A stretch of DNA of 64,000 nucleotides from Actinomycetes bacterium (GCA_031426395.1 JANPLG010000124.1:1851-65850), one strand, 5' to 3'. Positions 8,001 to 51,594 are shown, numbered from the stretch's first letter. Program-made: numbers and translations. The notes: a model not told the origin generated them from the letters alone.

Positions 8001-10229
8001 GTCGTTGCTGCCGGCGCGGGCCGGGGCGAAGTAGATGGGCAGGTTGTCCGAGGCTTCCCCGAAGGCCTCCGCTTCTGCCCGCGCCTGGAGGACCAGTTGC
8101 TGGCGCAGCTCGAAGACGGCTTGCTGCGCTTGCCGGAGCTGGGGCATGGCACCGAGCGCCTCCGCCTCAGTGTTGTTCAGTTGCCGGTTGACCTCATCCC
8201 GCCGGGTCTGCGCGGAACGCATCTTCTCCTCGGCGCGGCCTACGGCGGCGCGTTGGTCGTCGGTGAGCGACTTGGCGAAAGCCGCATCAGCGGTTGCCGG
8301 CGGGACCGCGTTCTGGAGCGCCATGAGCTCGCCCTTGAGCTTCTCGACCTTCGCCGTCTTCTCATCGATGACGGGCTGGGGCATCATCGCCGCGATCGCA
8401 TCCGCCAACTCCTTCTCGGCGGCGGTGAGTTCCTGCTGCTTGACGGTTACGGCGTTGTCCGACTTCGCCTTGTTGAGGTCCGCCAGGGCCTGCTTCGATA
8501 CCAGGTCGCTGAGGATCTTGTTGGCGTCCGTTACCGCCTGCTGCTCGGCGGCGAGCTTCTTGTCCGCGACCTCGAGTTCGGTCTGGAGGATGATGACCTG
8601 CCGCTTCAGGTCGGCGACAGCTCCGTCCCTGGCGAACGCCTCCTGCTCCTTCTTCAGCAATTCAGACTGGAGCGTCCGGGCGCGGTCGACGAAGGCACGG
8701 CCCTCCGGATTGAGGATCGTCACCTCGTTGCGCCGCAGGGACTGAAGGAGGCGGGGCACGTTGGTGAAGTAGAAGAGGCGCACCTGCTCGTTCACAAACC
8801 CCTCGGCGTCTCCCGTGTAGGTCTCGTCCAGGCCAACGAGAGCGGCGGAGAGGATGTCGCGCCCCACGCGGGCTCCGACCACGCTCTCCCCGGCGGCCTT
8901 CATCGCGGCGTCGTTCACTTCGCGGAGCTGCGCCGCGAGGGTGGGCCAAGCGGTGTCGGCCTGATTGATCAGGGTGACCAGCCCCCGGCCCAGGGTCATG
9001 CGGGTCTCATCGGGGACGGGGAGGGCCCGGTCATCATCACCTTCCCGCGCCCTGGCAAGTCCCTCCCGGAGTGCCCGCGTGTACTTGAGCAGCTCGCCGG
9101 TCTCGACGTCGCAGGCGGTCCGGACCGCGTCATACAGCCCACGGAAACCTTCGATGCAGCGCTGGGTCTTCTGGCCATGCTCCCGCACTCCGGCGCAAAG
9201 CTTGTCATCCCGCTTCGCGCCGTGCATCTCCGTTGCCTCGACGTAGTCCGGCGGCTCGAGTCCCTCGACTAGCAGGCCTGACCCAGGCTCATCCAGCTTG
9301 TCCGACTGACGGATGGGCGCCAGGGCTTTCACCAGTGATCGGTTGAGGATCTCCGCGCGACCAAAGGCAACGAGTTGGCCAGCCAGCGCATCGGCGGCTG
9401 CCAGCCCCGTAGGCTTGCCGCTGGTCAGCTTGGGGAACTGGGTGGCATCAAGTTGGGAACCGAGACCGGAGGAGAGCTTGTTGCCATAGCCCGTGAACGC
9501 CTTGACCGCCTTGAAGAGCAGGCCCTTCTCCCCCTCCGTGCCGCGCAGTTTCTTCGCGTCCTCGATGCCTGCCTTGAGCTCGGTCAGTAGCGCCTGCGCC
9601 TCGTCAATGGGATCCTGCTTCTTCTTGAGAGCGGCCGCAGCATCCGACTTCGCCTTATCCGCAGCAGCAGCGGCGGCAGTGGCGGTATCGAGCGCCTTCT
9701 GCGCTTCGTCGATCTCGGCCTGTGGTGCCATCTTCTCTTTGAGCTGCTTCAGCTTCTCCTGCGCCGCCAGCAGCTCTTTCTTCTTGGTTTCCTGCGCCGT
9801 GGTCTTGTCCGCGAGGTCCTTGCGCAACTGCACGATCTCGGTGGAGGTGTCAGCCGCCTTGAGCGCTTCATCAAGGCACTTGGAATCGGTCTCGGCCTTC
9901 GGCTCTGTCAATGGCTTGAGCTTGGAATCAAGGCCACCGTTTCCGCCAATGGGGTGCGCCTTCCAGAGCTTGGCCCCCTCCGCGAGGCGAGCGATGCTGG
10001 TGCTGGAAAGCTCCGGGTCGGCGGGAAGCCCCAGCGCCGGCAGTAGCTTCTTCGCGTTCGCCAGCGGGGTTCTTGTCTCGCCGAGAAGCTTCTTCGCGTC
10101 GGTGACGGCTGCCGGGAGGTCCGTACAGGGCTTGTCAGCAGCCATGCCGCCAGTCACATAGGAGAGGGAGAGGAGACTGGTAACCAAGATGAACAGGGAG
10201 CAGAAGGCTCTTCGACTAGGGTGCCACAT
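5049..10229 (-). CDS. Giant (1726 aa) secreted protein with a Secretin_N-like module, extensive coiled coils and a C-terminal secretin pore domain
   Basis: N-terminal signal peptide (MWHPSRRAFCSLFILVTSLLSLSYVTGGMAA). Mid-protein block ...RVMFFAYGDSKTLFLRGNPADVETALDVVAGFDRPAPQARVTLWTLQLN... resembles Secretin_N ring modules. C-terminal ~250 aa (...FKLTPIFDPSG..., VDRHTVNTEVQVSNLE..., GGVPIVRNLPILKDIPLIGYFTRQ..., ESVILGQTAIYPTV) follows the secretin (GspD/PilQ/pIV) domain pattern, including the VPLLGDIPLLGxLF signature. Most of the remainder is heptad-like, K/E/A/Q-rich helix. Confidence 0.75.
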   Translation of the reverse strand: MWHPSRRAFCSLFILVTSLLSLSYVTGGMAADKPCTDLPAAVTDAKKLLGETRTPLANAKKLLPALGLPADPELSSTSIARLAEGAKLWKAHPIGGNGGLDSKLKPLTEPKAETDSKCLDEALKAADTSTEIVQLRKDLADKTTAQETKKKELLAAQEKLKQLKEKMAPQAEIDEAQKALDTATAAAAAADKAKSDAAAALKKKQDPIDEAQALLTELKAGIEDAKKLRGTEGEKGLLFKAVKAFTGYGNKLSSGLGSQLDATQFPKLTSGKPTGLAAADALAGQLVAFGRAEILNRSLVKALAPIRQSDKLDEPGSGLLVEGLEPPDYVEATEMHGAKRDDKLCAGVREHGQKTQRCIEGFRGLYDAVRTACDVETGELLKYTRALREGLARAREGDDDRALPVPDETRMTLGRGLVTLINQADTAWPTLAAQLREVNDAAMKAAGESVVGARVGRDILSAALVGLDETYTGDAEGFVNEQVRLFYFTNVPRLLQSLRRNEVTILNPEGRAFVDRARTLQSELLKKEQEAFARDGAVADLKRQVIILQTELEVADKKLAAEQQAVTDANKILSDLVSKQALADLNKAKSDNAVTVKQQELTAAEKELADAIAAMMPQPVIDEKTAKVEKLKGELMALQNAVPPATADAAFAKSLTDDQRAAVGRAEEKMRSAQTRRDEVNRQLNNTEAEALGAMPQLRQAQQAVFELRQQLVLQARAEAEAFGEASDNLPIYFAPARAGSNDPLGRVMFFAYGDSKTLFLRGNPADVETALDVVAGFDRPAPQARVTLWTLQLNGRDPAQLNGSVRLINEEMRYLRANIIGIQDVLRNSVNQEVNSVAIGFKSLIQGTPLDMDQRLCRYMAYPREVRERLGLQLPYSEWHSTAAQTLRLSADLKALRGYVERFMELRALRKKQGLDPRPSNRLAEELNLVGEFGIAAVREVQASLGRVTHRMDRVKGLQKCYVEDAGGFTWQALKLRKADALCELKTLAKLAEEMAEMLAIKQDKATLVDNLRKLVKRSFKQLVPGDPPPKEKDTLDNFYGDTVLPAVRKGEESVQELQRILHSIAKGIDPDCVCDTSALGSRLNKLEKVYRQRKKQEVDKSKLAIQLLDLETVTRWTIPDPANSTTLGQTLFISSLLRRSCRLRVLRDFSTELIALSRQANAAAGKYSNGRDQELAKRRGERYDQFLHDSLAVARVLISGEDTVSLLGAANGNASSNKQAGSPTFPALPRTLFGALHKRESNLNDDEMTANQLEVLMALQAKGRHSCGLEVRSILRQIQRTQGLSGDQVQPGSPLVWQLREQYLPLLGWLSRSLVDSPTDFRDLDDQAKAGACYVPQPYRALGMQAVKMNFKQPVAADQMAWTIAALEGQRNSLTQSTARVAAADDMVKRLMVIVEDDVDHYFVSPALKALQDVIHDKPSTGERIGDKLAGLVGGTKPRVNFGLIERTSILATNRLVARVSPNASGDVTLKGPEDFLEQAQQLAQIAQSVNNSFFAPKRSSNAAKNGMTAAGAASALGASGASLGLFGGIGALLSLLDEQKEEPPGEVYALTSGNTFKLTPIFDPSGQALRFKFDYAAVVNVREPNGTVNPSIPRVDRHTVNTEVQVSNLEVREVSRFGVNAQLGLPEKRTGGVPIVRNLPILKDIPLIGYFTRQAAKGGLIQESVILGQTAIYPTVSEIVDLLVDVPQRTELGFKPPAYLRVGDRPTARETLNGLLKKLHLAQ

Positions 10230-10609
10230 TCTATGGACCTCGATCTTCAGGTGCGACCAATCCGAGCGGTGCTAACAAGTCGCAAATCACTCGCGAGCAG
10301 CTTCTCCGGTATTGTTCTCCGTGCTTCAGTGCGTCTCCTGCCTAGGAGGGCGAGCAACCTTGGCCTCTCTTGAACGCAGGACGAGGGCGTGATCCGGCGG
10401 TCGCAGCCGAAAGGGGCAGCGGCGCGGGTGGGGCAGTGGAGCGCAGGGGAGTTCGTCACGTCGGCCGCCGCGCCGATGCAGGAGATCCGCGTCACCCCGG
10501 TGCAGTGGGACCTTCCCCGAAACCAGGAGCATCGCCGTCCGTGGATGCAGGGAGTGCTCTTGAACGGGTGGACGGATTCTAGACAGCCGAGGCGTGGCGG
10601 ATTCCCGAC

Positions 10610-10725
10610 AGTTTTCGACGTTCTCTGTCGAATGTGTCGAGAACCGGGCATGAACCCGGAAGTCGTGAACGGCCCCTCCGGATTCCGTCAGTTTCGACAG
10701 AGGCTCTGTCGAGAATCGTCAGGCA
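10610..10725. promoter_or_regulatory. Two copies of a TCGACAGAG-n-CTCTGTCGA palindrome in the divergent secretin/recF intergenic region
   Basis: gttttcgacgttctctgtcgaatgtgtcgag (10610-10645) and gtttcgacagaggctctgtcgagaatcgtc (10688-10720). The second is a perfect 19-bp palindrome. Both lie 260-370 bp upstream of recF. Confidence 0.4.
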
Positions 10726-10981
10726 CGCGTCCAGGAATCCACGGAGAGGCGATAGGGGTTATCGACATCCTGACAGCACTACGGAGTCTACTGAATAGAT
10801 ATATGACTCTGAGTCTTTCAGAGGTCTCATGTGCAAAAGGGAGATCGGGGCCGGGGAGCTGGAAGATCGATTTGGGGAAGGTTGGACCGGAAGGGCCTTC
10901 CGGGGGATGGGGCTTGGATAGAGTAAAGCCAGTCGCCTCCTGATCCCTGACTTCCAGCCTTGATCTGTTTCCCTGGCCTTT

Positions 10982-12139
10982 ATGCTTCTTCGCCATCTGA
11001 CCTTGCGGCATTACCGGAACTACGTGGAGCTTCGCCAGGAGTTCTCACCCAGCCTAAACGTGGTGGTGGGTCCCAACGCCCAGGGCAAGACGAACCTGCT
11101 GGAGTCGGTCTACCTGCTGGCTACCAGCAAGTCGATGAAGGGCAGCAAGGACGCGGACCTGATTGAGTGGGACACGCCGGCCGCGCTGGTTTCCGCGGAC
11201 GTGCTGCGGGAGAAGGCGAACGACATCGAGCTGGAAGTCTCCCTCTCTCGGACGGAGAAGAAGACGCTGGTGGTGAACACGGTCCATGTGCCTCGTGCCA
11301 TGGAGTTCATCGGGCAGCTCAAGGCGGTGGCCTTCAGCGTCAGCGACCTGGAGGTGGTGCGGGGCGAGCCGCTGCGCCGCCGCCGGTTCCTCGACCTGGA
11401 GGTCTCCCAGCTTAGCCCCAGCTACGTCCATACGCTGGCGTGCTACCGCAAGGTGGTGGAGCAGCGGAGCAAGCTCCTGAAGCAGGCGCGCGACCGCAGC
11501 ATGCGTCCGATCATCGAGGAGACGCTGGGGGTCTGGACCGACCAGATGATTGTCTATGGCAGCAAGCTGATGGACAGGCGGCGGCAGTTCCTGGAGAAGC
11601 TGGAGGCGTTCGCCCAGCCAATCCACTCCCTGATGACGGATGCCCAGGAGCGGCTCACGGTCTCCTACCATCCCAGCTTCCGGGCACCGGAGAACCCGGA
11701 GAAGGTGCCGGACGCCTATCGCGAGGCGCTCTCCCATGTGCGGGAAGAGGAGTTCCGCCGGCAGGTCTGCCTGGTGGGTCCCCACCGGGACGACGTGACC
11801 TTCCTGATCAATGGCCGGGACGCGCGCACCTACGGCAGCCAGGGCCAGCAGCGTACGGCAGCCCTGAGCGTGAAGCTGGCCGAGGTGGAGCTGATGCGGG
11901 ATCTCACGGGAGAAGCCCCGGTCTGCCTTCTGGACGATGTCTTCAGCGAGCTGGACAGCCGCCGCCGTGGCCACATCTTCGACGTGACCCTGGGCGCGTG
12001 CCAGACCTTCCTCTCCACCACGGATGTGGAACTCCTCCCGCTGGAGGTGCGGAAGCAGGCGACGCTCTTCCATGCGCGGCAGGGAAGCCTGAGGAGAGAG
12101 GGAGAGAGGGAGAGAGGGAGAGAGGGGGCGACGCGGTGA
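10982..12139 (+). CDS. recF: DNA replication and repair protein RecF, with a C-terminal simple-repeat-encoded tail
   Basis: MLLRHLTLRHYRNY start, Walker A GPNAQGKTNLLE, C-terminal LLDDVFSELD signature. The last ~20 codons (RREGEREREGATR) are encoded by a (GAGAGGGA)n array. Confidence 0.9.
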   Translation: MLLRHLTLRHYRNYVELRQEFSPSLNVVVGPNAQGKTNLLESVYLLATSKSMKGSKDADLIEWDTPAALVSADVLREKANDIELEVSLSRTEKKTLVVNTVHVPRAMEFIGQLKAVAFSVSDLEVVRGEPLRRRRFLDLEVSQLSPSYVHTLACYRKVVEQRSKLLKQARDRSMRPIIEETLGVWTDQMIVYGSKLMDRRRQFLEKLEAFAQPIHSLMTDAQERLTVSYHPSFRAPENPEKVPDAYREALSHVREEEFRRQVCLVGPHRDDVTFLINGRDARTYGSQGQQRTAALSVKLAEVELMRDLTGEAPVCLLDDVFSELDSRRRGHIFDVTLGACQTFLSTTDVELLPLEVRKQATLFHARQGSLRREGERERGREGATR

Positions 12140-12623
12140 ACCGTTTCCGCTGCGTTTGTCGGGTTGTAGCCTCCATCCAAAGCTTCGTGCGCTCGACACC
12201 TTACAATCGATTGGCGAACGGTGTATGAGCCATCCGCCGCAATTGACTGCGGCGCGAGGTCGCTGGCTCTGTGTTTGGGGATGTTTGGGGGCGGAAGCTA
12301 ACCGGAGGGCATAGCCAGCAGCCTTGCGCTGCGTTCGATCACGGTAGCCGCATCGGGTACCTCATGCCCCCTTGGGCTGGGTGTTCTGCCAGGCGGCTTC
12401 CGCAACCGAAAGTCGCGGTGTCCGTGGGGGTGTGCGGGACACCAAGCCACCACCGTGATCGAATGCGGCGCGAGGCCGCTGATCTCCGGCCGGAGCGGTG
12501 ATGCGGGTCGGCTTTGCTTTGCAAAGTGATTGAACTTCGCAAAGACGAGATGCAACCAACCTGAACGGTGCTCCGCGCATTCCAGATTGCTGGAACCCCT
12601 GCATTACGGAGACCCGCGAAAGG

Positions 12624-13598
12624 ATGAGCCGTGAGATGGAAACTCCCTCCCCCCAGCCCGCGCTTGGTGAGTTCGCCCTTGATCCGTCCCCGAACGGGGG
12701 CATGCGTGAACCCGTAGCCGCAGCGGTAGCCGTACCAGCCCCGTCGCCAGCCACAACGATCTCGCCGCGTTCGCATCACTCCGGCTATACCGCGTCGGCA
12801 CTCTTGTCGCCTTCCGTCAACCCTCTCGGCGGAACAGCGCCCCGCGCGTCTCACGCGATCCGCCCGGAGGAAGACGAAGACGTGGATCCGCCCACGGAGC
12901 GGGGACGCGGATTCCTTGGGCGGCTCTCTATCGCGGAGTGGCTGCTGAAATACCGCGGCTACCTGCTCCGGCAGATCGAGAGTGGGCGGGAGCTGGAGGT
13001 CATCCTGATCGACCTCCTCATCGTGGCCGCCCTGCCGACCGCTTTCTACGGCCTGGTGACGGGAATGGCGACCGGCTCCTGGGCGCGGATGCTGACCAAT
13101 CCGTTCAAGCTGCCGGTGCTGCTGGTTCTCACCACGGTCCTCTGCCTGCCCACCCTCTACATCTTCCTCTCCTACCTGGGCAGCCGGCGGTCGTTCCCAC
13201 AGATCACCGCCCTGGCGTTCACCGGCATCGCCATTGTGGGCATCATCCTCGCCGCCTTCGCGCCAATCACATGGTTCCTTACCTTCACGGCACCCGGAGC
13301 GTATGCGCTGCACGTCGTCGTAAACGTTGCCGTGCTCGCGCTGGCGGGGTGCATGGGTGTCCGCTTCCTCTTCCACGGAGTCCGCCGAGTCCTCGGCAAC
13401 CAGCCCGGGGCTGGGAAGCAGATGACCTTCATGACGGCGTGGATGGCGATGTACGGACTGGTCGGCGCGCAGATGGGATGGATGCTGCGCCCCTTCTTCA
13501 GCCCCACCACCGAACTCTTCCGCGCCCCGGAATCCGGCGGTGAGACCGTCTTCGCCGCCATCGCCTCCCTGGTGTGGCAGCTCGTGGGCGGACGCTGA
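12624..13598 (+). CDS. Polytopic membrane protein of unknown family (paralog 1) with a disordered Pro/Ala-rich N-terminus
   Basis: About 5 predicted TM helices. C-terminal half aligns with the next ORF (GAQMGWMLRPFF / AAQQMAWIFRPHF; APESGGETVFAAIASLV / HPLASGGTALQRLWDLI). Confidence 0.5.
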   Translation: MSREMETPSPQPALGEFALDPSPNGGMREPVAAAVAVPAPSPATTISPRSHHSGYTASALLSPSVNPLGGTAPRASHAIRPEEDEDVDPPTERGRGFLGRLSIAEWLLKYRGYLLRQIESGRELEVILIDLLIVAALPTAFYGLVTGMATGSWARMLTNPFKLPVLLVLTTVLCLPTLYIFLSYLGSRRSFPQITALAFTGIAIVGIILAAFAPITWFLTFTAPGAYALHVVVNVAVLALAGCMGVRFLFHGVRRVLGNQPGAGKQMTFMTAWMAMYGLVGAQMGWMLRPFFSPTTELFRAPESGGETVFAAIASLVWQLVGGR

Positions 13599-13657
13599 TT
13601 GAGCACCCTGCCACCCCACCTGAACCCGAAACAGGAAACAGGGAACTGGAGACCCGA

Positions 13658-14311
13658 ATGCTCCCCATCAACGTCTTCCACCACCGTGAAGAGCTGCTGA
13701 AGGCGCTTCGTGGTGGAGTGGGCCTGCGCTCGCTCATCCGGCGGATGGGCGTCGGCTCGTTCCTCTGCGCCACGGGCTATGGGCTGGTGCTGGGCGCGCA
13801 GGTGGGCGGCTGGCAGGTGCTCTCCAGTCCCGTGAAGCTCTGCCTGGTGCTGCTCGGGACCACCGGCCTCTGCGTCGCGGCCCTCTACGTCATGCTGGCC
13901 CTCGCTGGGCAGCGGCTGGGGTGGGGGCAGGTGGTGGGGCTGGCGCTCTGCTCCGTCTCTGCCAGCGCGCTCTGCATGGCGGCTCTGCTCCCGATCACCG
14001 CCTTCTGGGCCCTGGCCAATTCCAGCCCGGACCGCGCCCCATTGGTGCTCGCGCACGCCACCGCCTTCGGCATCGCGGGGTGGGTCGGCACCCGCTTCGG
14101 GATGGAGATGGCGCGCGCGCTCTTTCCCGTTCCACGAGCCATCCATGTCTTCACCCTCTGGCTCTGGCTCTTCGGCCTGGCGGCGCAGCAGATGGCGTGG
14201 ATCTTCCGTCCCCACTTCCACGCCACCACCACCTTCATGCATCCCCTGGCCTCCGGCGGCACCGCCCTGCAGCGCCTCTGGGACCTCATCACCGGCACGC
14301 TCTTCCGCTGA
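13658..14311 (+). CDS. Polytopic membrane protein of unknown family (paralog 2)
   Basis: Tandem paralog of 12624-13598. Start chosen at MLPINVF with a GGAG RBS about 8 nt upstream; the ORF track gives 13574 as the earliest start. Confidence 0.5.
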   Translation: MLPINVFHHREELLKALRGGVGLRSLIRRMGVGSFLCATGYGLVLGAQVGGWQVLSSPVKLCLVLLGTTGLCVAALYVMLALAGQRLGWGQVVGLALCSVSASALCMAALLPITAFWALANSSPDRAPLVLAHATAFGIAGWVGTRFGMEMARALFPVPRAIHVFTLWLWLFGLAAQQMAWIFRPHFHATTTFMHPLASGGTALQRLWDLITGTLFR

Positions 14312-14406
14312 GGTACGGCGGGACATCGCCGATCGGCGGTAGGAGGTCGCTCGTTTATTGTGGAACCCAGTAAGCCTCAGACCGCTGAAAGACAGGGACC
14401 GCAAAC

Positions 14407-15135
14407 ATGGGCAAACCGTTTACGGATGAAGACTGGAACACGTTACTTGGACACATAGGGTATGGCAACCCGAGGGGCGCTCTCTGGTTCCTGGGGATGG
14501 AGGAAGCTCTTGGAGGTGATCGAGACGCCAACCTACGATGGCGTCTCGATCACTTCGCGCATCCAGTTGATACGCTCACCAACCACATGAAGGCACCTTG
14601 GATAGGCGGTACGGTTCCGCGAACGCCCACCTGGCGCATCATGGCAAAAATTGCGCGACTACTTGAGGGAGCGAATGATTGGGCTGCTCCCGAAGCGGCA
14701 GCCACCTATGTCCGGCGCAAGCCGGGTACAGCAACGGGATCGACATTCCTCATGGAGATGCTGCCCTTGCCGAACAAGAGCCTCAAAGACTGGTCACACC
14801 ATGATCGCTTTCCCGGCGGGCGACTCCATTACGAACGCGACCACCTGACCCAACGGATCGAACAGCTTCGCGAGTTCGTGAATGAGTACCAGCCCCGTTG
14901 CATCATCTGCTACGGGAAGGGATTCTGGCCGAGGTACCATCAGGTTATGCCCTTGACTGATGTGCGGAGCATCCAGTTGCCGGAGACAACGGTAACCATC
15001 GGGAGGTGGAACACGACCACTGTGCTGCACACCCCGTTCTTCGTACCGTACGCGTTTCCAGAGCGTGCGATTGCCGCAATCCCTGGCCTACTTCGTGAGT
15101 ACGCGTGCGACGATACGAAGAGCGCGACCCGGTGA
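14407..15135 (+). CDS. Hypothetical protein in a low-GC islet, with weak resemblance to the uracil-DNA glycosylase superfamily
   Basis: GC drops visibly (~55%) versus flanks. N-terminal GYGNPRGALWFLGMEEALGGD loosely resembles the family-4 UDG GEGNP...FVGEAPG..ED motif, and a VLHTPFF block resembles the C-terminal HPSP motif. No confident family. Confidence 0.35.
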   Translation: MGKPFTDEDWNTLLGHIGYGNPRGALWFLGMEEALGGDRDANLRWRLDHFAHPVDTLTNHMKAPWIGGTVPRTPTWRIMAKIARLLEGANDWAAPEAAATYVRRKPGTATGSTFLMEMLPLPNKSLKDWSHHDRFPGGRLHYERDHLTQRIEQLREFVNEYQPRCIICYGKGFWPRYHQVMPLTDVRSIQLPETTVTIGRWNTTTVLHTPFFVPYAFPERAIAAIPGLLREYACDDTKSATR

Positions 15136-15240
15136 GTGACTTGGAACAACCCGACGTTCCGGTTCAATTGGCCGTGCCTACGCCCTCCGCCTACGATCCA
15201 GCGTGGCGCTTGTGTACCACCGTTCCCCTCCAGCACTCGT

Positions 15241-15267
15241 GTAGGGCACGCTCGCCGCAGCGTGCCG
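15241..15267. repeat. REP-like palindromic element GTAGGGCACGCTCGCCGCAGCGTGCCG (single copy)
   Basis: Same 27-mer as in the 24299-24630 cluster. Stem GGCACGCT/AGCGTGCC with a 6-nt loop. Confidence 0.7.
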
Positions 15268-15544
15268 TCGTTCTCGTCACGCGTGAATCCCCCGCTTGGC
15301 CGATGTCTCCATCGCGGACGGATCGGAAGTGTGGAATCCGACGGCTCGACGGGCATGACACGCTTCCTAACGGTCGCGGTTCCGGTCTGCGGCTCTATGA
15401 CGGGAGGGCGGCAGTATGATTCAGTGGCAGGCCGTCAATGTAGATTTGGAACACAGCGTCCGTGAATCTGTTCGCTCGGCCAGGGTCCAGAGCCGTCCCC
15501 GCCGGCCGACTGCCCAATGCCCAATGCCTAAGACCCGAGGTTGA

Positions 15545-15590
15545 AGAGTAGGATTAGGATTAGGATTAGGATTAGGATTAGGAGCAGGCT
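15545..15590. repeat. (AGGATT)6 tandem hexamer array
   Basis: gtaggattaggattaggattaggattaggattaggagc. Same unit as the TAGGAT hairpin elements at 17516, 18297 and 48344. Confidence 0.85.
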
Positions 15591-15627
15591 GGATGGCTTC
15601 GGCCGTCGTTAGGAAGCTCCCCACGCG

Positions 15628-16407
15628 TTGGCAACCTCCCCCACTGAACTGAGCGGAACCACCTTGCGGCCGATGTCGCGGCCCGCCCCACGGGCCAGCC
15701 TCCCGGCGGAGGCGCGGGCGGTGCTGGTCAAGGACCTCCGCTCCGAGGTCCGCACCCGCGCGGCCCTCGCTACCATCCTGCTCTTCGCGGTGGTCACCCT
15801 CATCACGGTCGCCTTCACCGTGCCAACCAGGGTCCCCGGCCTTGTGGAACGGGGCGCGGACACCATCAACCGCTCCTACGTCCTCTCCGCGCTGCTCTGG
15901 ATCATCCTCTTCTTCAGCGCCATGGCGGGCCTGCCGCGCACCTTCGTCAAGGAAGAGGAGATGCGCACTGCGCCCGCGCTGCGGCTGGCCGCCCGGCCAC
16001 TGGCGGTCTTCTGGGGCAAGCTGCTCTTTAACGCCCTGCTGGTGACTGCGGTCGCTGTGGTGGTTCTCCCCCTCTTCCTCATCCTGCTGACGCCGCGCGT
16101 GGAGAGCTGGCCCGCCTTCCTCGCCTACCTCCTGTTCGGCTCACTCGGCATGGCGGGCGGCGCGACCATCCTCGGGGCCATCGTGGCCCGGGCGGGCGGC
16201 AAGGCCTACCTGATGGTGCCGCTCGCCTTCCCCATCCTGCTGCCGCTGCTGGTGATGACCATCAACGGCACCGCCATCGCGCTCAACGGAAGCACCACAC
16301 ATCCGGTGGCGAATCCCGGCGACCAGCTCCTCCCGCTCGTGTCCTACCTGGTAGCGCTGGTCACCGTCTCCGTCCTGCTCTTCGACTACGTATGGCGGGA
16401 CACCTGA
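15628..16407 (+). CDS. ccmB: Heme exporter permease CcmB
   Basis: Six-TM ABC permease with CcmB-like sequence (LVKDLRSEVRTR...LLFAVVTLITVAF...). TTG start at 15628; an alternative ATG is at 15673. Confidence 0.75.
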   Translation: MATSPTELSGTTLRPMSRPAPRASLPAEARAVLVKDLRSEVRTRAALATILLFAVVTLITVAFTVPTRVPGLVERGADTINRSYVLSALLWIILFFSAMAGLPRTFVKEEEMRTAPALRLAARPLAVFWGKLLFNALLVTAVAVVVLPLFLILLTPRVESWPAFLAYLLFGSLGMAGGATILGAIVARAGGKAYLMVPLAFPILLPLLVMTINGTAIALNGSTTHPVANPGDQLLPLVSYLVALVTVSVLLFDYVWRDT

Positions 16408-16555
16408 TGGCCGGGTGCCCAACCTGGGGCGGCATTCAGGGCGTCTCACAAGGCGAGGGTGATCCGAACCACGGAGACCGGGGCCAGACCGACCGTTATA
16501 ATAGGGACGGACACGGACAGAGGGCCAAGGGCGGCCCAGGAGCAAGGGACGCGGG

Positions 16556-17398
16556 ATGCAGCAGGTGAACCGAACGGCACGACGCAGCGCGGGACCGATG
16601 GGCGTGGCGCTCTGGAAATGGGCGCTGCTGCCGCTCATCATGGGCGTCATCTGCATGGCCTACCTCTGGGCGGGCAACCTGCAGAACTTCATGTCGCCTG
16701 AGACGGCGCGGATCATCTTCTGGCACGTGCCGATGGCGATGGTCTCCCTGGTCTGGTTCGCGGCCTCCGCCTGGTACTCCGTCCGCTATCTGCGGCGGGG
16801 CCAGCCGTTCGATGACGACCGCGCCGCCATCGCCGCCGAGATCGGCCTGATGACCACGGTCCTGGCCACCCTGACGGGGGCGATCTTCTCCAAGATGCAG
16901 TGGGCGGGCGGCCTTAACAGCAAGTGGTACGAAGGCTACTGGCAATGGGACCCCAAGCAGACCGCCATCCTGGTGGTGATCCTCATCTTCGGCGCCTACT
17001 TCGGCCTGCGGATGTCGGTGGAGGACACGGAGCGGCGGGCGCGGCTCTCCGCAGTCTACTCCGTGCTGGGCGCGCTGACCGTCCCGCTGCTCTACTGGGT
17101 GCTGCCCCACCTGCCGATCTTCGCCAGCCTCCACCCCACGGACACCATCAAGCAGGGGATGGACACGCCCTACCGGGTCACCTTCTGGACCTCCACCCTG
17201 TTCTTCACCGGCATCACGCTCTGGGCTTACCAGCTCAAGCTGCGCGTGGCGGAACTGAGCCTCCGCCGGATGCTCAGTGGCGCGGCAACTGGAGCGGGCT
17301 CCGCGCCCACCGTGGCGGTGAGGCGGCCACGACCGGAAGTTGCCACTCACCGGGCGGCTGTCAAAGAGCAAGCCGCCATTCAGCAAGGAGAACGGTAA
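16556..17398 (+). CDS. ccmC: Heme exporter protein CcmC
   Basis: WWD-domain motif KWYEGYWQWDPKQTAILVV and conserved His-containing TM helices. The start could instead be MGVALWKW at 16598. Confidence 0.85.
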   Translation: MQQVNRTARRSAGPMGVALWKWALLPLIMGVICMAYLWAGNLQNFMSPETARIIFWHVPMAMVSLVWFAASAWYSVRYLRRGQPFDDDRAAIAAEIGLMTTVLATLTGAIFSKMQWAGGLNSKWYEGYWQWDPKQTAILVVILIFGAYFGLRMSVEDTERRARLSAVYSVLGALTVPLLYWVLPHLPIFASLHPTDTIKQGMDTPYRVTFWTSTLFFTGITLWAYQLKLRVAELSLRRMLSGAATGAGSAPTVAVRRPRPEVATHRAAVKEQAAIQQGER

Positions 17399-17399
17399 G

Positions 17400-17513
17400 A
17401 TGGAGTTGTACGTGGTGCTGGCAACCAGCGTGCTGGTGTGGAGTGGGCTCTTCTTCTACATGCTCAGCCTCGATAGGAAGCTGACGCGGCTCGAAGAGCG
17501 GGACCGGCAGTAA
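17400..17513 (+). CDS. ccmD: CcmD-like small membrane protein (37 aa)
   Basis: Not in the ORF track because it is under 60 aa. MELYVVLATSVLVWSGLFFYMLSLDRKLTRLEERDRQ, a single TM plus basic tail. AAGGAG RBS, and the start overlaps the ccmC stop region. Confidence 0.65.
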   Translation: MELYVVLATSVLVWSGLFFYMLSLDRKLTRLEERDRQ

Positions 17514-17515
17514 TA

Positions 17516-17647
17516 CCAAGTTCCTAATCTTACTCTTAATCCTAATCCTACTCCCAAGCCTCTCGAACCGTTCCCGCCTACCGACAAGCGGAACGAGCTT
17601 CCAGGGCTTCTTGGAGTAGGATTAAGAGTAAGAGTAGGATTAGGATC
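17516..17647. repeat. MITE-like hairpin element of the AAGTTCCTAATC...(TAGGAT/TAAGAG)n family, copy A
   Basis: Arms built of cctaatc/ttactc hexamers in inverted arrangement around a conserved core ctcccaagcc.ctcg...cccgcctaccg.caag.gga.c.agcttccagg.cttct. AT-rich relative to the genome. Confidence 0.8.
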
Positions 17648-17830
17648 CGATGGCGGTCCGCCATCGGAACTCAACACACCAGCTGCCAACTCCAGGCACG
17701 GGCCAGACCCACTCATCAGAGACGAGGGCGGAACGCAGCCCGGCTGGAAACCGTCTGAGTAATGAGCGCGAAGTTCGCGCAGGGTGCGGGCCGCAGGCGT
17801 CAGAGGCTCACCCGGATAAGGGAAGTGAAG

Positions 17831-18292
17831 ATGAAGGCGAAGAACTTACTTTTAGGCGGCGGTCTGGTGCTGGGCTGCGCCGTGGTCGGTGCCGCTTCCT
17901 TCCGGGGCTCCGAGGTCAACTCCATCGAGTTCGACCAGTTGGCGCGCGTGGGCACCAAGCAGGTGATCCAGGTCTACGGCAAGCTGGACGCGCAGACCAT
18001 TAAGCCGATCAAGGGCAGCCCCAACCACGTGGAGTTCAAGCTCCTGGACGAGAAGACCCACAAGCCTCTCCAGGTGGTGTACGACAACGTTCAGGTTCCA
18101 CTGCCGGCAAACTTCCCGGCCGCCAGCCACGCCAAGGCCACCGGCACCTACGACACTGCCACCAACGTCTTCACGGCCAACTCCGTCCTGACCAAGTGCC
18201 CCTCCAAGTACGAGTACGATACCCTGCCGATTGACCAGAAGCAGGCCGTGGACAAGTTCCAGAAGTCGACCGGTCTGGCCGCAGCCAAGTAA
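17831..18292 (+). CDS. ccmE: CcmE-type heme chaperone, CXXXY variant
   Basis: N-terminal TM, OB-fold core. The position normally holding the heme-binding His (H-x3-Y) reads LTKCPSKYEYD, i.e. C-x3-Y. Start at MKAKNLL with RBS gggaag; the ORF track gives 17762. Confidence 0.7.
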   Translation: MKAKNLLLGGGLVLGCAVVGAASFRGSEVNSIEFDQLARVGTKQVIQVYGKLDAQTIKPIKGSPNHVEFKLLDEKTHKPLQVVYDNVQVPLPANFPAASHAKATGTYDTATNVFTANSVLTKCPSKYEYDTLPIDQKQAVDKFQKSTGLAAAK

Positions 18293-18296
18293 TGTT

Positions 18297-18426
18297 AAGT
18301 TCCTAATCTTAATCCTACTCCTAATCTTACTCCCAAGCCCTTCGTGGCGATCCCGCCTACCGGCAAGTGGATCAAGCTTCCAGGACTTCTCTGAGTAAGA
18401 TTAGGAGTAAGAGCAGGATTAGGAAT
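18297..18426. repeat. MITE-like hairpin element of the AAGTTCCTAATC...(TAGGAT/TAAGAG)n family, copy B
   Basis: Begins 5 nt after the ccmE stop. Same core and arm architecture as 17516-17647. Confidence 0.8.
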
Positions 18427-18580
18427 TCGAACCCCACGAGGCTCGTTGTGACCGGACACCCCTGCGCTTCCGCAGGCCGGGCATGGCGGGCCTTTCCCAT
18501 AGATTTGATCGCCGCGTGCGCACTCTTCCCTTTCCCGGGTAGAGCACCGATAGAGCAGCACCCTGGCGAGGAGCGAATGA

Positions 18581-21415
18581 ATGCCGGAACCGAACATCTC
18601 CGATGCCGTCCACAAGTCGGGACTGCTGGGTATCGCCGTTACGTTCGGCAACCTGGCGGTCTGGATCGGCCTCTTCTTCACCGTCCTCGCGGTGATCTTC
18701 TTCTGGCGCGCGATGCTGCGCACCATGCGCCTTCATCCTGAGGGGTCTGGCGCGGCGGGGGCCGGCACGGCAGGTTCCGTGTCTGCGCTGGCCGCCAACG
18801 GGGGCGGCAAGAACGGTGACGGCAAGCAGGCCAACGGAAAGAACGGGAACGGCAACGGGAAACACGCCCGGCCGGCCGCTCACTCCAGTTCGGCGGCCAG
18901 TAAAGCGGCCAGTACGGCGACCAGTTCGTCCCTTTCGGAGGCGGAGCAGAAGACGGAGGTCGTCTTCCACTGGGCCAAGCAGTTCTGGATCGTCTCCTGC
19001 TCCATGATGTTCCTGGCGGCGCTCTGCCTCTGGACCCTGCTCCTCACCCAGCAGTACAACATCAGTTACGTGCTGAAGAACACCAACCCGGAGATCCCCA
19101 TCTTCTACCGGTTCGCCGCGTTCTGGGCCAACCAGGAGGGGACGTTCATCCTCTGGGGGATGTACAACGCGGTCATCGCCGGCTTCCTCTTCTGGCGCGC
19201 CAAGCAGGACGTGCGCTGGGTGATGCCGTTCTTCGCGCTGATCAACGTCTCGCTCTTCACGCTGCTCTTCTTCATGAACCCGTTCTGGTTCCCGGCAGCG
19301 GAAGAAGTGCGCAAGGGGCTCACCGCAGCCGGCCTACCGCCGGACAAGCTGGCCTGGCTGCCTAACACCTGGTCGCAGCACCTCGCGTACTACTTCGGGT
19401 GGGGCACCTACATCCGGCCCAACCTGCTGCAGCCCCGGGGACTGAACGAGAGCCTGCAGAACTTCTGGTTCGTGATCCACCCGCCCACCCTCTTCGTCGG
19501 GTACAGCACCATGATGGTGCCGGGCATCTTCGCCCTCGGGGCCCTGATGCGCCGGGACTACGACCAGTGGATCAACCGCGCCGCCTCGTGGCTGATGTTC
19601 TCCTGGACCGTCCTGGCCTTCGGAGTCTTCCTCGGCGCCTACTGGGCCTACGAGACCCTGGGCTGGGGTGGCTACTGGAGTTGGGACCCCGTCGAGAACT
19701 CCTCGCTCATCCCGTGGCTGGTCGGCACCACGCTGCTCCACGGCTTGCTGGCGCAGCGCAACCGGGGCAACTTCAAGCACGTCAACCTCTTCCTGGGGAT
19801 GCTGGCGCTCAACTCCGTCTGGATCGCCTCCTTCCTGGTGCGGAGCGGCGTCCTCTCGGAGGTCTCCGTCCACTCCTTCGCCACGCCGGACAAGGCGGTC
19901 TTCTTCACGCTGCTGGTTGGCATGATCGCGATGGCGGCCCTGAGTCTCGGGATCTGGCTCTGGCGCTTCAAAGACATCCAGAGCGAGATCGCTTATGAGC
20001 ATGTCTGGGAGCGCCACTTCGGCTTCTTTCTCGGCCTGATCACGCTCTCCGCCATCTCCGTGGTGGTCACCTTCGGCGTCACCATGCCGATCTGGAAGCC
20101 GTGGATCAGCGGCGGGCAGAAGTCGACGCTCGACCACCTCTTCTACAACAAGGCGACGCTGCCCATCGTCTACGTGACGGTGCTCCTGATGGCGCTGACC
20201 CCGCTGATGCCGTGGCGTCACGCGCGTGAGCAGGCGCGGCCACCGAAGCTGTTCACCAAGGTGGCGCTGGCGCTGGCCGGGATCATCTCCGCCTACTTCA
20301 TGGTCGGCGCGATCATGGCGTGGCAGAACGGCTTCCGCTCTTTCAACGACACGCCGCCCTCCTTCGGGAACGACCACGCGTACATCGCCTTCGCGCTGCT
20401 GCTGGGGCTGTCGCTGATCACCAACTTCTCCGTGCTCATTCGCGCCTTCAAGGGCGGCATCTTGAACACGGGGGCGTGGTGGGCGCACATCGGGTTCATC
20501 CTGATGCTGGCCGGCGTGATGATGAGCACCCGCCTCAAGACGGTCCAGAACATCACGGAGTTGCCGCTCAACAGCGCGGTGAAGCTGTATGGCCGGGACT
20601 GGACCTTCAAGGGTGAGCGTCCCTCCTCTGGGGATGGCGACCGGCCACGGATGCTGGTCCAGATGCGGGAGCCGGGTGGCCACGTCCGCGATTTCGATCC
20701 CAAGGTCTTCATCAACACCCAGGGCGAGAAGCCGACCGCCATGGCGTGGCCGCAGATGGAGAGCCAGTGGTTCGGCGGGGCCTGGGGAGACCTCTACCTG
20801 GAGCCCTCCAGCATGGTCTCCTACAAGCCGCTCGGCTCGGTGGAGAAGCTGAAGAAGGACTCCCCGCCGCAGACCTTCCTGGTCCAGCACCCCAGTTCGC
20901 AGAAGGAAGACACCATCACGGTGCAGTTCCTTTCGCTGGACACTTCGGAACTGCAAAAGGCGGTGCAGGCCGGCGCCCGCGGCCCGATGCTGGCCTACGC
21001 CGACCTTACGGTCACCGTCAACGGCGAGCAGCGCTCCCTCCGCGCCCCGATGGAGCTGCAGTTCGGTGGCCCGGAAGGACCGAAGACGGACGCACGCCCG
21101 ATTGTGCTGGAAGGGCCCAACGCGGAGATCACCTACACTCTCTTCTGCCAGACCAACATGACGCCCGGAAACCTGGTTGCCAGCGTGGTGGTGGCGGTGC
21201 CGGTGGCCAACTTCCAGGTGATGCACATTCCCGGCATTCAGGTGCTCTGGTTCGGGGTGTACATCATGGTCGGAGGTGGGATCATCGCCTTCTTGCGGCG
21301 GCGCCAGCTCGCGAACAAGATCGTCCCCGCCTTCAAGGGTCCCCGCCGCACCGACGAGCCGGAACCGACGGAGAAGGCTCCGCTTCCGGAGCGGGAGCTG
21401 GTCGGCGCGGAGTAG
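18581..21415 (+). CDS. ccmF: Cytochrome c-type biogenesis protein CcmF (heme lyase subunit), 944 aa with N- and C-terminal extensions
   Basis: WWD motif GWGGYWSWDPVENSSLIPWL, conserved His-containing TM helices and about 15 TM segments. N-terminal ~150 aa include an extra TM and a G/N/K low-complexity linker. Confidence 0.85.
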   Translation: MPEPNISDAVHKSGLLGIAVTFGNLAVWIGLFFTVLAVIFFWRAMLRTMRLHPEGSGAAGAGTAGSVSALAANGGGKNGDGKQANGKNGNGNGKHARPAAHSSSAASKAASTATSSSLSEAEQKTEVVFHWAKQFWIVSCSMMFLAALCLWTLLLTQQYNISYVLKNTNPEIPIFYRFAAFWANQEGTFILWGMYNAVIAGFLFWRAKQDVRWVMPFFALINVSLFTLLFFMNPFWFPAAEEVRKGLTAAGLPPDKLAWLPNTWSQHLAYYFGWGTYIRPNLLQPRGLNESLQNFWFVIHPPTLFVGYSTMMVPGIFALGALMRRDYDQWINRAASWLMFSWTVLAFGVFLGAYWAYETLGWGGYWSWDPVENSSLIPWLVGTTLLHGLLAQRNRGNFKHVNLFLGMLALNSVWIASFLVRSGVLSEVSVHSFATPDKAVFFTLLVGMIAMAALSLGIWLWRFKDIQSEIAYEHVWERHFGFFLGLITLSAISVVVTFGVTMPIWKPWISGGQKSTLDHLFYNKATLPIVYVTVLLMALTPLMPWRHAREQARPPKLFTKVALALAGIISAYFMVGAIMAWQNGFRSFNDTPPSFGNDHAYIAFALLLGLSLITNFSVLIRAFKGGILNTGAWWAHIGFILMLAGVMMSTRLKTVQNITELPLNSAVKLYGRDWTFKGERPSSGDGDRPRMLVQMREPGGHVRDFDPKVFINTQGEKPTAMAWPQMESQWFGGAWGDLYLEPSSMVSYKPLGSVEKLKKDSPPQTFLVQHPSSQKEDTITVQFLSLDTSELQKAVQAGARGPMLAYADLTVTVNGEQRSLRAPMELQFGGPEGPKTDARPIVLEGPNAEITYTLFCQTNMTPGNLVASVVVAVPVANFQVMHIPGIQVLWFGVYIMVGGGIIAFLRRRQLANKIVPAFKGPRRTDEPEPTEKAPLPERELVGAE

Positions 21416-21540
21416 CGCTGCCGCTTGGGGCAGATGACGCAAATAGCCCGCCGCACGGAGTTGAACCTCCGTGCGGCGGGCTTCTTGCGGTCTGAAACTG
21501 ATCCCTGTCCCCCTACGAACCCAAACCCAAGCCTTCCGCC

Positions 21541-24022: not shown

Positions 24023-24298
24023 GTTTCTTCCTCCGGGAGGTTCGGTCCCGTATCGTTTCTCTTACGAGTGAAAGCTCTAGGTTGGTTGACTGCCGTCAAT
24101 GCGGCGTCAGCACTTGGTACCCGAGGACTCACTTGCTGAAACAGAGCGTTGAAGAAACCGCCCGTGGGGTCACGGCTTGGAGGACGACCGATTGTCGGAA
24201 GCGGGCCTTAGGAATCGCGGGGCGATTGCCAAGAGCAGGTAGTAGGGCTTGGGTAGCATACCGCCACGAGGCCGAAGCGGTTCATCCGCCGTACCTTG

Positions 24299-24630
24299 GT
24301 AGGGCACGCTCGCCGCAGCGTGCCGCTGTTCCCGCCGACCGTCACATTCTTCGCGAAGCGGACGCCGCGTTCGTGGCCGACGGGCCGGAGCGGCGTCCGG
24401 CCCCTACTCGCACGCTCGCGGTATCGGCCGTACCCCTGTAGGGCACGCTCGCCGCAGCGTGCCGCCGTCCCCGCCAACCGTCACATTCTTCGCGAAGCGG
24501 ACGCCGCCTTCGTTGAGGACGGGCCGGAACGGCGTCGACGCGGGACCGTCAGCGACAGAAGCGGCACCGGCTTCGCGGGGACGGCATCGGGTGGCGGGAG
24601 CGGCGGAACGCTGCAGCGAGCGTGCCCTAC
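24299..24630. repeat. Cluster of REP-like palindromic elements: two direct ~140-bp units, each starting with GTAGGGCACGCTCGCCGCAGCGTGCC, plus one inverted copy
   Basis: Copies at 24299-24325 and 24438-24463, and an inverted copy at 24606-24630. Each direct unit also contains ccgtcacattcttcgcgaagcggacgccgc. Confidence 0.8.
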
Positions 24631-24739
24631 ACAAGTGCTCAATGGGTGCGGCGGTGCGAGAAGTCGCTCACTGCCGCCCGTCGGTGGCGATGAAGCCGGA
24701 TTGGGAAACGTCTAGAGTGAGTGCGGTTGCCCGCAGAGG

Positions 24740-28776: not shown

Positions 28777-30213
28777 TTAGAGCGACTTCAATAGCAGCTC
28801 CGCCAACTCGGCCGCTTGCTGACGCAACTCCGGGACGGCTGTCGACTCCAGCCGCTCTCCGACCAGAAGGTTGCCCATCGCGAAGATGGCGGGGGCACCG
28901 CTAAGCTGATAAGCCCCGTCCGTGGCCACGCCGACGCTGGATGGATGCGGCAGGGCCAACCCGCTCTCCAAGAGGGAGCGGAGCGGAGGGCGCGACGGCA
29001 ATGCCCGCCCCGGCCCGCGGCAATCGAAGACCAGGCTAGCATACAGGGTGTCGCCGCCCAAAGCGATGCGGACTCCGTCCGCCGTCTTCGTGATGCCATC
29101 GCAGCTCGCGGCAAGGACGCGGAGCTGACCGCTCGCTTGCATCGCCTTAATGCGTGCGGCTACCTCAGCGGGCATCCGGTGGCGGTGGACGTTCCACAGG
29201 CTCTCGTAGCGCCGCAGTAGCCGCCGCTGGTCCACTGTCGGCAGCCTGCGCCAGAGGGCGACCGTATGGGGCCGAAGACCGTCCATCACCGCCTGCCATG
29301 CCACTCCCTCTGCTGCGGCTGCCCGCACCTCCCGCCGCAGGTGCCGCAGAACTCCGGAGAGGCGCGGCGCCTCCCCGAACGCCTCGAGCGACAGCTTCCA
29401 GGGCGGGGCCGGGGCCGCGTGGGGGCGTGGGAACAGCCCGCGCCGTGAGATGGCGACCACCGGCTGCCGCCACCCGGCGCGCTCCAGGCTGAGCAGCGTA
29501 TCGACGGCGGTCAATCCCGTGCCGAGGATAACCACGGGGATTTCGGATTTCGGATCTCGAATTTCGGATTTGGATGCGGGTTGACTGGAGGCAGAAGGCA
29601 CTCCGGTCTCTCCCTCGCCCCCTCGCCCCCTCGCTCCCTCGCTCCCTCGCTCAAAGTCGAACTGCCACGGCTGATGGATCACCCGTGACGACGGCTTGGC
29701 TGCCGCGAAGTGGTTGCCCAGCGCCAGCACCAGCCGATTCGAGAGCAGGCTCTCCCCTTGCGCGAAGTCGACTCGTAGACCCTCAGGCGCTTCGGCGATG
29801 CTCACCGCTTCCTGCGCGATGATGTCCAGCCGGATACCGCCAGCCTCCGCGAGGTACTGCGTCTCGGACCAGCGCTGCCGGAGGTAGTCGCCGTAGAGGC
29901 GGCGCGGCAGGAAGTCGCTTGCTGGCGGCGGCGTGATGAGCCCGGCCTGCCCCAGGCTTTCTGCGGCCGCTTCAGAGGTGAGCCAACGATGGAAGCCGTC
30001 CACCTGCTCCGGTGCGGCGCCCATGACCCCGGCACGCACGTTCAGCAGATGCTCCGGTCGCGCGGTGGCGTAGGCGGCACCGGTGGCGAGGAACGGTCCC
30101 CGGTCGATCAGGGCGATGCTCAGTGGACGGTCGGCTCCTTCCACCAACCGCCGGACAAGCTGACATCCCGCGAAGCCGCCCCCGATGATCGCGATGTGGT
30201 AATGCGGCCTCAT
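28777..30213 (-). CDS. FAD/NAD(P)-binding oxidoreductase family protein carrying an in-frame repeat-element insertion
   Basis: N-terminal IAIIGGGFAGC Rossmann motif and a second VVILGTGLTAVD motif. The linker ...SEGARGRGGEGETGVPSASSQPASKSEIRDPKSEIP... is encoded by (CTCCCTCGC)n at 29607-29652 plus (CGGATTT)n at 29538-29578. Confidence 0.65.
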   Translation of the reverse strand: MRPHYHIAIIGGGFAGCQLVRRLVEGADRPLSIALIDRGPFLATGAAYATARPEHLLNVRAGVMGAAPEQVDGFHRWLTSEAAAESLGQAGLITPPPASDFLPRRLYGDYLRQRWSETQYLAEAGGIRLDIIAQEAVSIAEAPEGLRVDFAQGESLLSNRLVLALGNHFAAAKPSSRVIHQPWQFDFERGSEGARGRGGEGETGVPSASSQPASKSEIRDPKSEIPVVILGTGLTAVDTLLSLERAGWRQPVVAISRRGLFPRPHAAPAPPWKLSLEAFGEAPRLSGVLRHLRREVRAAAAEGVAWQAVMDGLRPHTVALWRRLPTVDQRRLLRRYESLWNVHRHRMPAEVAARIKAMQASGQLRVLAASCDGITKTADGVRIALGGDTLYASLVFDCRGPGRALPSRPPLRSLLESGLALPHPSSVGVATDGAYQLSGAPAIFAMGNLLVGERLESTAVPELRQQAAELAELLLKSL

Positions 30214-47830: not shown

Positions 47831-48319
47831 TCACGGATCCGCTCCGGCCGCAGCTTGGAGCGCCTCGCCGCTCAGCCGGCAGATGCGCCAGTCTTCCAAG
47901 ATTGTCGCGCCGAACTTCCGGTAGGCGTTCTGCGCCATCTCGTTCCAGTCTAGGACGGTCCACTCCATCCGGCCGCAGCCCCGGCTCACCGCCTCTCGCG
48001 CCAGGTGCCGCAGCACCGCGGTGCCGACCCCCTTCCGACGCGCCTCCGGAACGACGAAGAGATCTTCCAGATGGAGCGTGGGCCGCGCCAGGAAGCTGGA
48101 GTAGGTCTCGAAGACCAGCGCAACGGCCACGGGGCGCTGGTCCACTTCGGCGATCCAGGTCTCGAACTTGGGGCAGGGGCCGAAGGTGTGCTCCACCAGC
48201 CGCTCCTGGGCCTCCGCGTCCGGCGGCGAAAGCTTCTCATACTCCGCCAGCGCGCAGACCAGGGAGAGCATCACTCCCGCGTCCGCCCGCTCCGCCCGCC
48301 GCACGTTGATCTCTGACAT
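47831..48319 (-). CDS. GNAT family N-acetyltransferase
   Basis: RRKGVGTAVLRHL acetyl-CoA binding motif. Start MSEINVRR; the ORF track extends to 48346. Confidence 0.8.
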   Translation of the reverse strand: MSEINVRRAERADAGVMLSLVCALAEYEKLSPPDAEAQERLVEHTFGPCPKFETWIAEVDQRPVAVALVFETYSSFLARPTLHLEDLFVVPEARRKGVGTAVLRHLAREAVSRGCGRMEWTVLDWNEMAQNAYRKFGATILEDWRICRLSGEALQAAAGADP

Positions 48320-48343
48320 GTTGCCTCCTGGCCAAGGGGGCCC

Positions 48344-51578: not shown

Positions 51579-51594
51579 CGAACACAGCAGTCTC

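Follow-up and report, generated by a model that had tools for sequence, protein, structure and literature searches.

The stretch of DNA analysed here (in the following, the window) comprises 64,000 nucleotides of an Actinomycetes bacterium (GCA_031426395.1) and contains a cluster of ccm genes, which gave Pfam matches to CcmB, CcmC, CcmD_alt, CcmE and CcmF in this order on the plus strand. The corresponding genes are ccmB (15673-16407, with its ATG at 15673), ccmC (16598-17398), ccmD (17400-17513, coding for a CcmD_alt protein of 37 amino acids), ccmE (17831-18292, coding for 153 amino acids from an ATG shared with the homologues) and ccmF (18581-21415); the gene starts were refined using a Logan contig from this organism together with the homologues. 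Because the Pfam matches confirm the identities of these genes, two complete hairpin elements on the plus strand can be assigned to the spacers on either side of ccmE: el1 (17520-17647) lies between ccmD and ccmE, and el2 (18299-18426) between ccmE and ccmF. The TAA stop codons of ccmD and ccmE precede the respective elements by 7 nt each, the ATG of ccmE follows 185 nt after the end of el1, and 155 nt separate el2 from the start of ccmF. The predicted CcmE protein carries a CPSKY motif (encoded at 18197-18211) in place of the usual haem-binding HxxxY, as does CcmE of the closest relative considered below (L004), and represents the Cys-type CcmE of archaea and some bacteria.

Each element consists of an arm of pyrimidine type, a core and an arm of purine type (17522-17554, 17555-17612 and 17613-17645 in el1; 18301-18333, approximately 18334-18391 and approximately 18392-18425 in el2). 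The left arms are built from tandem hexamers of the type CYTAMT and the right arms from their complement, AKTARG, represented by TAGGAT, TAAGAG, TAAGAT and TAGGAG. Over 128 nt, el1 and el2 align without any gap and with 106 identical positions (83%), of which the left arms contribute 29 out of 33 and the cores 46 out of 58, including a block of 40 nt with 87.5% identity. The register of this alignment also matches an AGTAAT spanning both stop codons, both elements begin with the letters (A)AGTTCC, and TTCCTAATC is the outermost motif in either case. Within each element, the inverted arms of 33 nt are complementary at 91% (el1) or 88% (el2) of the positions, and they enclose a core of 58-59 nt that contains no open reading frame. 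The GC contents amount to 0.36-0.39 for the arms and 0.59-0.60 for the cores, compared to 0.656 for the entire window. The claims of an earlier note on this DNA are thus borne out as far as they concern two elements of about 130 bp in the ccmD-ccmE and ccmE-ccmF gaps, a core shared beyond the hexamers, and inverted hexamer arms forming a stem of more than 30 bp; the same is true for their predicted folding as RNA (see below). Directly abutting el1, we found a perfect GC palindrome of 10 bp, CCGATGGCGG-T-CCGCCATCGG (17647-17667), which is not present beside el2 and has no second copy in the 64-kb window.

Searching the 64-kb window for the arm pattern returned four occurrences at an expectation of 0.00, and the core blocks were not found at any third site within it beyond el1 and el2. 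It therefore holds two full copies, located 779 bp apart in the same operon, and two lone arms. One of the latter is a purine-type array, (TAGGAT)5.8, on the plus strand at about 15546-15583, some 90 nt before the start codon of ccmB. The other (48349-48375) is of purine type when read on the minus strand and lies about 30 nt upstream of a gene for a GNAT acetyltransferase on that strand, whose ATG we read from the sequence at about 48319 (the ORF being listed as 47831-48346); a small GC hairpin precedes this arm on the minus strand. The related fragments previously proposed at 15545-15590 and 48344-48405 are therefore real, but they represent single arms and not full elements. A Logan contig assembled from the same organism (L002, SRR20217183) starts within the (TAGGAT) array upstream of ccmB (contig positions 1-30) and terminates within the core of el2 (2745-2824). 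As both of its ends fall into repeats, they may represent assembly breaks.

RNA folding of the plus strand yielded minimum energies of -68.9 kcal/mol for el1 and -61.8 kcal/mol for el2, corresponding to z = -8.8 in each case against 200 shuffled sequences, none of which folded as well as either element. The minus strands were predicted to fold slightly better (-77.8 and -67.1 kcal/mol), and the consensus structure of both elements contains 39 pairs on the plus strand and 45 on the minus strand. Two pairs are kept despite changes on both sides, namely C-G to U-A in the arm and U-A to A-U in the inner stem. The mismatches of the stems show no strand bias, with 14 of them compatible with G-U pairing in sense and 11 in antisense direction, which gives no sign of RNA-level selection acting on the sense strand. 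For the lone arms, a lack of RNA structure is predicted (z = +1.6 upstream of ccmB and +0.25 upstream of the GNAT gene).

Neither a sigma-70 promoter consensus nor a terminator-like site was detected at el1 or el2 by scanning positions 15300-18800. Because the ccm genes are co-directional with no predicted terminator or promoter in between, the sequence suggests that ccmBCD, ccmE and ccmF are likely co-transcribed across both elements, and processing of the common RNA becomes plausible. An identity of the elements as intrinsic terminators or attenuators was rejected: their stems are AT-rich and continue into CCGAUGG or UUCGAACC, and the lack of a U-tract after either stem makes the attenuation site suggested in the earlier note unlikely. 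An inverted repeat of 23 bp that is rich in GC occupies the space between the convergent genes ccmF and purK (21438-21489) and looks like a conventional two-way terminator, which indicates that this genome possesses ordinary terminator hairpins, too, and that these are unlike el1 and el2. At the other end of the cluster, no ccmA gene is located directly 5' of ccmB, as opposed to the three relatives with a visible gene at this position (L003, L020 and the P0005 contig). Where ccmA is absent, the window contains a 1.3-kb stretch of lower GC content (14311-15628; 0.55-0.62) with a copy of a REP-like repeat, a (TGCCCAA) repeat, the (TAGGAT) array and an ORF of 242 amino acids (14407-15135) without any Pfam match.

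The orthologous ccm loci of five relatives were compared with the one in the window. The best CcmE homologues were 63% and 59% identical, and those with names came from Armatimonadota at 45-48% identity; such sequence similarities give a weak indication of the taxonomic placement of the window. Four of the loci (L003, L020 and the P0004 and P0005 contigs) represent compact operons in the order ccmA-B-C-D-E-F, in which ccmD and ccmE overlap or are 5 bp apart and ccmE and ccmF are separated by 62-133 bp. The closest relative (L004, with the CcmE protein of 63% identity) has a spacer of 182 bp between ccmD and ccmE which contains no hexamers. The same spacer measures 317 bp in the window, corresponding to about 185 bp plus one element; the two spacers are too diverged in an alignment for defining an exact empty site. 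Elements of the el1/el2 type are missing from all five related ccm operons examined, which identifies them as lineage-specific insertions and not as an ancestral device for ccm control. We conclude with high confidence that el1 and el2 are inserted palindromic repeats. An integron attC site or gene cassette was rejected as their identity, as ccmE occupies its ancestral position in the relatives and R'/R'' core sites are absent.

A search of metagenome contigs for the arm pattern plus the terminal motif led to ten loci, four of which contained intergenic arrays of the hexamers known from el1 and el2 (three with a GC content of 0.58-0.60, one of 0.45). One of these loci (L010) carries a small hairpin between adk and fmt, consisting of (CTTAAT)n arms around a core of 15 nt. 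Another (L015) contains three hexamer arrays, two of which form an inverted pair that tightly encloses a gene of 125 codons with one frameshift. After correcting the frameshift, its product matched PF05635 ("23S rRNA-intervening sequence protein", S23p) with E = 4e-19. About 8000 proteins were matched by this sequence at E <= 1e-10, the best 120 of them being 77-95% identical, and the matches with names are called "four helix bundle protein" and come mostly from Verrucomicrobiota and Limisphaerales. In total, we found PF05635 genes with hexamer arms at five independent loci, namely L015, L022, L032, L033 and the first copy in L043 (10001-10378); the last four are all of the further independent loci examined, and the flanks are alike in all of them. 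A distance of 2-4 nt separates the pyrimidine array (CYTAAT)n from the ATG, the stop codon is part of the purine array (GATTAR)n, and end-to-end duplexes of -50 to -76 kcal/mol are predicted. The terminal motif TTCCTAATC recurs at L015 and a variant of it, TTCCTGCTCCTAATC, at L032.

The arms follow a fixed order. In all eight palindromic hexamer elements counted (el1, el2, the hairpin of L010 and the five PF05635 cassettes), the pyrimidine arm precedes the purine arm, and the latter points towards a downstream gene of the same direction; the three lone arms with a clear gene context obey the same rule. The contig L043 of a member of the Limisphaerales (GCA_052325445.1) contains three PF05635 genes within 6 kb (10001-15740) in a cluster for polysaccharide export and ABC transporters, all of them co-directional with their neighbours and each equipped with its own short repeat unit as arms. 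The arms of the other two genes are composed of the heptamers GGTCAGA/CCGCTGA and of GAAGAGC against CTCTTC, respectively, and one of the genes is placed inside an operon, between genes for an ABC-2 membrane protein and an ABC ATPase, which mirrors how el1 and el2 are placed within the ccm cluster. The varied arm repeats and the operon placement in L043 indicate that the design with short repeats as arms is a general one.

Free-standing PF05635 genes, which we take to be covered by TIGR02436 as well, therefore share with el1 and el2 the hexamer vocabulary, the arm order and the terminal TTCCTAATC (in variant form at some loci), and they likewise precede a host gene directly and in the same orientation, sometimes within operons. 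They differ in carrying a gene of 378 nt, compared to the unrelated core of 58-59 nt in el1 and el2, and in occurring in different groups of organisms. No PF05635 gene was found in the 64-kb window, and the cores of el1 and el2 have no similarity to the PF05635 cassettes. Judging from the shared sequence features, we hold with moderate confidence that el1 and el2 are kin to the S23p cassettes; as the arms are of low complexity, their resemblance could also be due to convergence rather than common descent. A search of the literature for PF05635/TIGR02436 and intervening sequences with inverted repeats returned the paper on Coxiella considered below and no free-standing cassettes with repeat arms, and a search with the S23p protein revealed no relatives among viral contigs.

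Further searches were conducted with the individual parts of the elements. The core pattern had no true match in 185,579 species-representative genomes (one genome per species), a set that consequently does not include the source genome; the sole match among them, of CCCGCCTACCGNCAAGN{5,9}AGCTTCC to a GC-rich sequence of Tepidiphilus, lacks hexamer arms and was rejected as a chance event. Matches of the arm pattern in viral contigs were also rejected, as they were mostly due to sequences coding for linkers of proline, threonine and asparagine (three of four inspected), and these show that the arm pattern lacks specificity when used by itself. None of the sequences in a word-indexed set of 5.8 billion or a representative set of 1.84 billion matched the open frame of the elements in translation, BLASTN in distant mode gave no match to plasmids, and searching the literature for the hexamer strings retrieved unrelated primers only. 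Nothing reached the gathering score in Rfam, which also indicated no rRNA in the window, and accepting E values of up to 10 added nothing meaningful; the best match below the threshold was a plant miRNA precursor hairpin with 34 bits, compared to the 90 bits required.

The window is rich in other repeats. A second hairpin with repeat arms is located at 51310-51592 between genes for a SepF-like protein and pyrroline-5-carboxylate reductase, both on the plus strand. It consists of three copies of the 16-mer GAATGGGCGAGAGGGA and their complement around a core of 181 nt without an ORF, is predicted to fold with -138 kcal/mol (z = -5.4), and has arms similar to the ones in the third PF05635 cassette of L043. 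A REP-like repeat with a GTAG head and a palindrome, GTAGGGCACGCTCGCCGCAGCGTGCC, is present in four copies (15241-15266, 24299-24324, 24438-24463 and, on the minus strand, 24605-24630) compared to none expected; the last three form a composite structure at 24290-24640, in which two direct copies and an inverted one share longer flanks. Moreover, short tandem repeats with units of 6-16 nt form dozens of arrays, about half of them in or beside intergenic spacers (examples start at 4770, 29538, 29610, 30915, 31789, 43953, 44291, 44855, 45054, 52956, 54547, 56004 and 59132). Some units recur on both strands, as GATTTCG at 29538, 30915 and 31789 (minus) and GATTGCG at 43953 and 44291 (minus), and CTCCCTCG is the unit of the arrays at both 29610 and 45054. 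Such arrays may derive from elements of the same kind as el1 and el2, as their arms or remnants. Heptamer and octamer arrays are also embedded in uninterrupted ORFs (29538-29652, 43953-43985, 44855-44883 and 45054-45089). The array-bearing ORFs include those for an FAD/NAD-binding oxidoreductase (28777-30213, minus strand) and a PSCyt1/PSCyt2/PSD1 protein (44323-47346, minus strand; the PSD1 domain is matched in two stretches), and reading by hand placed another array near the N-terminus of a DUF1501 protein, behind a twin-arginine-like signal. Units whose length is not a multiple of three could allow frame switching within such coding sequences.

Among the known systems, the intervening sequences (IVSs) of 23S rRNA genes offer the closest comparison. 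The IVS of Leptospira carries an S23p ORF, and IVSs of about 100 nt without an ORF occur in Salmonella and other enteric bacteria. In el1 and el2, as in IVSs, a long stem of terminal inverted repeats closes the element (33-nt arms, 39-45 pairs, z of about -8.8), and the loop of an IVS is either short or filled by an S23p ORF, the same gene family that is found in the arm-sharing cassettes. In Coxiella burnetii, the IVS is a selfish element of 428 nt in helix 45 of the 23S rRNA; its terminal repeats form a stem of 28 bp that is cut by RNase III at the first repeat, leading to excision of the IVS, and two to three tandem heptamers directly precede the ATG of the S23p gene (PMC4990558). IVSs are generally regarded as selfish and are patchy in their distribution (PMC4990558). 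Unlike them, el1 and el2 are situated between protein-coding genes and not in helix 25 or 45 of 23S rRNA, they carry no ORF, in contrast to the ORF-bearing IVSs, and their arms consist of 33-nt hexamer arrays.

With little more than even confidence, and by analogy to these systems, we interpret el1 and el2 as ORF-less members of a family of IVS-like selfish hairpins which reside in mRNA instead of rRNA. They would represent non-autonomous palindromic intergenic elements that were inserted into the ccm cluster of this lineage and are presumably co-transcribed with ccmBCD, ccmE and ccmF. Their transcripts would form imperfect duplexes of about 39-45 bp, which RNase III may cut in the same way as the stems of IVSs. 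The processing of RNA proposed earlier gains support from the analogy with RNase III-cleaved IVSs of the same architecture; we hold the cleavage itself with lower confidence than the assignment. Such cleavage would split the ccm transcript into pieces for ccmBCD, ccmE and ccmF and would leave purine-rich single-stranded leaders on the downstream pieces, resembling the lone arrays in front of ccmB and the GNAT gene. Any effect on the level of CcmE is more likely a by-product of the insertion than a selected function. We infer the homology of the arms across phyla, and likewise the mobility of el1 and el2. An extension of this interpretation appears possible to us, if less than probable: IVSs would then occur far beyond rRNA, as widespread hairpin cassettes with stems of short tandem repeats, with or without an S23p gene, which reside in fixed orientation in 5' regions and intercistronic spacers of apparently at least two phyla and are cut out of mRNA by RNase III, and the many repeat arrays of this genome would be their arms or remnants.

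An unlikely alternative, though the most probable one, is that el1 and el2 act at the level of DNA only, as mobile or recombinogenic palindromes of the MITE or REP type whose transcripts remain unprocessed and without consequence. With MITEs, they have terminal inverted repeats in common, and together with Correia, RUP, BOX, ERIC and REP-BIME elements they belong to the short, non-coding, intergenic and often co-transcribed repeats with inverted ends. Some Correia elements and the REP sequences in malEFG are known to serve as sites for RNase III or RNase E or as stabilisers of mRNA. The lineage-specific presence of the elements, the unbiased mismatches of their stems and the ends of the Logan contig in the (TAGGAT) array and in el2, where assemblies often break at repeats, would all agree with such repeats. 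However, no target-site duplication is visible at either element, as the flanks ACCAAG/TCCGAT (el1) and GTTAAG/TTCGAA (el2) contain no direct repeat, and no transposase gene with the same ends was seen in the window or the fetched loci, PF05635 being the sole cargo found; no transposase activity of PF05635 proteins is known to us. The arms are tandem arrays of hexamers and not a unique terminal repeat, and the GTAG or GTGG head of REP/REPIN sequences is absent from el1 and el2, even though a separate repeat of the GTAG type exists in the window. Finally, the uniform orientation of all eight palindromic elements is hard to explain unless transcription matters. Rickettsia palindromic elements are palindromes of about 100-150 bp which are scattered over the genome and typically lie in frame within coding sequences. 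By comparison, el1 and el2 are palindromic too, but are placed 7 nt after stop codons and not in coding sequence.

Two further explanations are both quite improbable in our view. According to the first, which comes closest to the device for setting CcmE stoichiometry envisaged in the earlier note, the hairpins evolved as cis-regulatory RNAs dedicated to the ccm operon, with processing or attenuation sites adjusting CcmE against CcmBCD and CcmF. The precise bracketing of ccmE at identical distances from the stop codons, the stable folds and the two compensatory pairs are in favour of this proposal. It is contradicted by the five related ccm operons that lack the elements and by the same arms occurring next to unrelated genes in other organisms (adk/fmt, SNF2, SOD and polysaccharide export), and the missing U-tract and the lack of a matching Rfam family also speak against it. 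The second explanation assumes a local origin without mobility, in which arrays generated by slippage were inverted by template switching, one hairpin was copied into the neighbouring spacer by local recombination, and the likeness to the S23p cassettes is convergent. The abundance of short tandem repeat arrays in the window, some of them in inverted pairs, the close vicinity of the only two full copies known and the low complexity of the arms are consistent with this scenario. Against it, the same hexamers, terminal TTCCTAATC and arm order recur in contigs of other organisms with GC contents of 0.54-0.61, and as about 340 distinct classes of hexamer repeats exist, sharing one of them by chance is unlikely. 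It is most improbable that the (UAGGAU)n purine arrays are leader elements (as a ribosome standby site, an SD-like enhancer or a protein-binding site) with the pyrimidine arm as a masking anti-leader, since the arrays lie anywhere between about 10 and 185 nt from the start codons, a sigma-70 consensus is lacking and the ORF of the S23p cassettes directly follows the pyrimidine arm without an SD sequence, in spite of the sense orientation and predicted lack of structure of the lone purine arrays in front of ccmB and the GNAT gene, the purine arm pointing to the downstream start in all palindromic copies, and the AGGA and GGAG motifs within the arrays.

If el1 and el2 are indeed IVS-like hairpins, the consequence for the ccm operon would be modest: cleavage would probably divide its transcript into three mRNAs and may thereby uncouple the expression of CcmE from that of CcmF. 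For this genome, the same interpretation would explain the swollen intercistronic spacers rich in short tandem repeats. Beyond the organism, it would link three phenomena, namely the ORF-less palindromes in operons, the abundant functionless "four helix bundle" (S23p, PF05635) genes and the IVSs of rRNA, and it would provide a testable model of RNase III-processed hairpin cassettes riding on host transcripts. It would also bear on the origin of the rRNA IVSs, which has been unclear since 1990.
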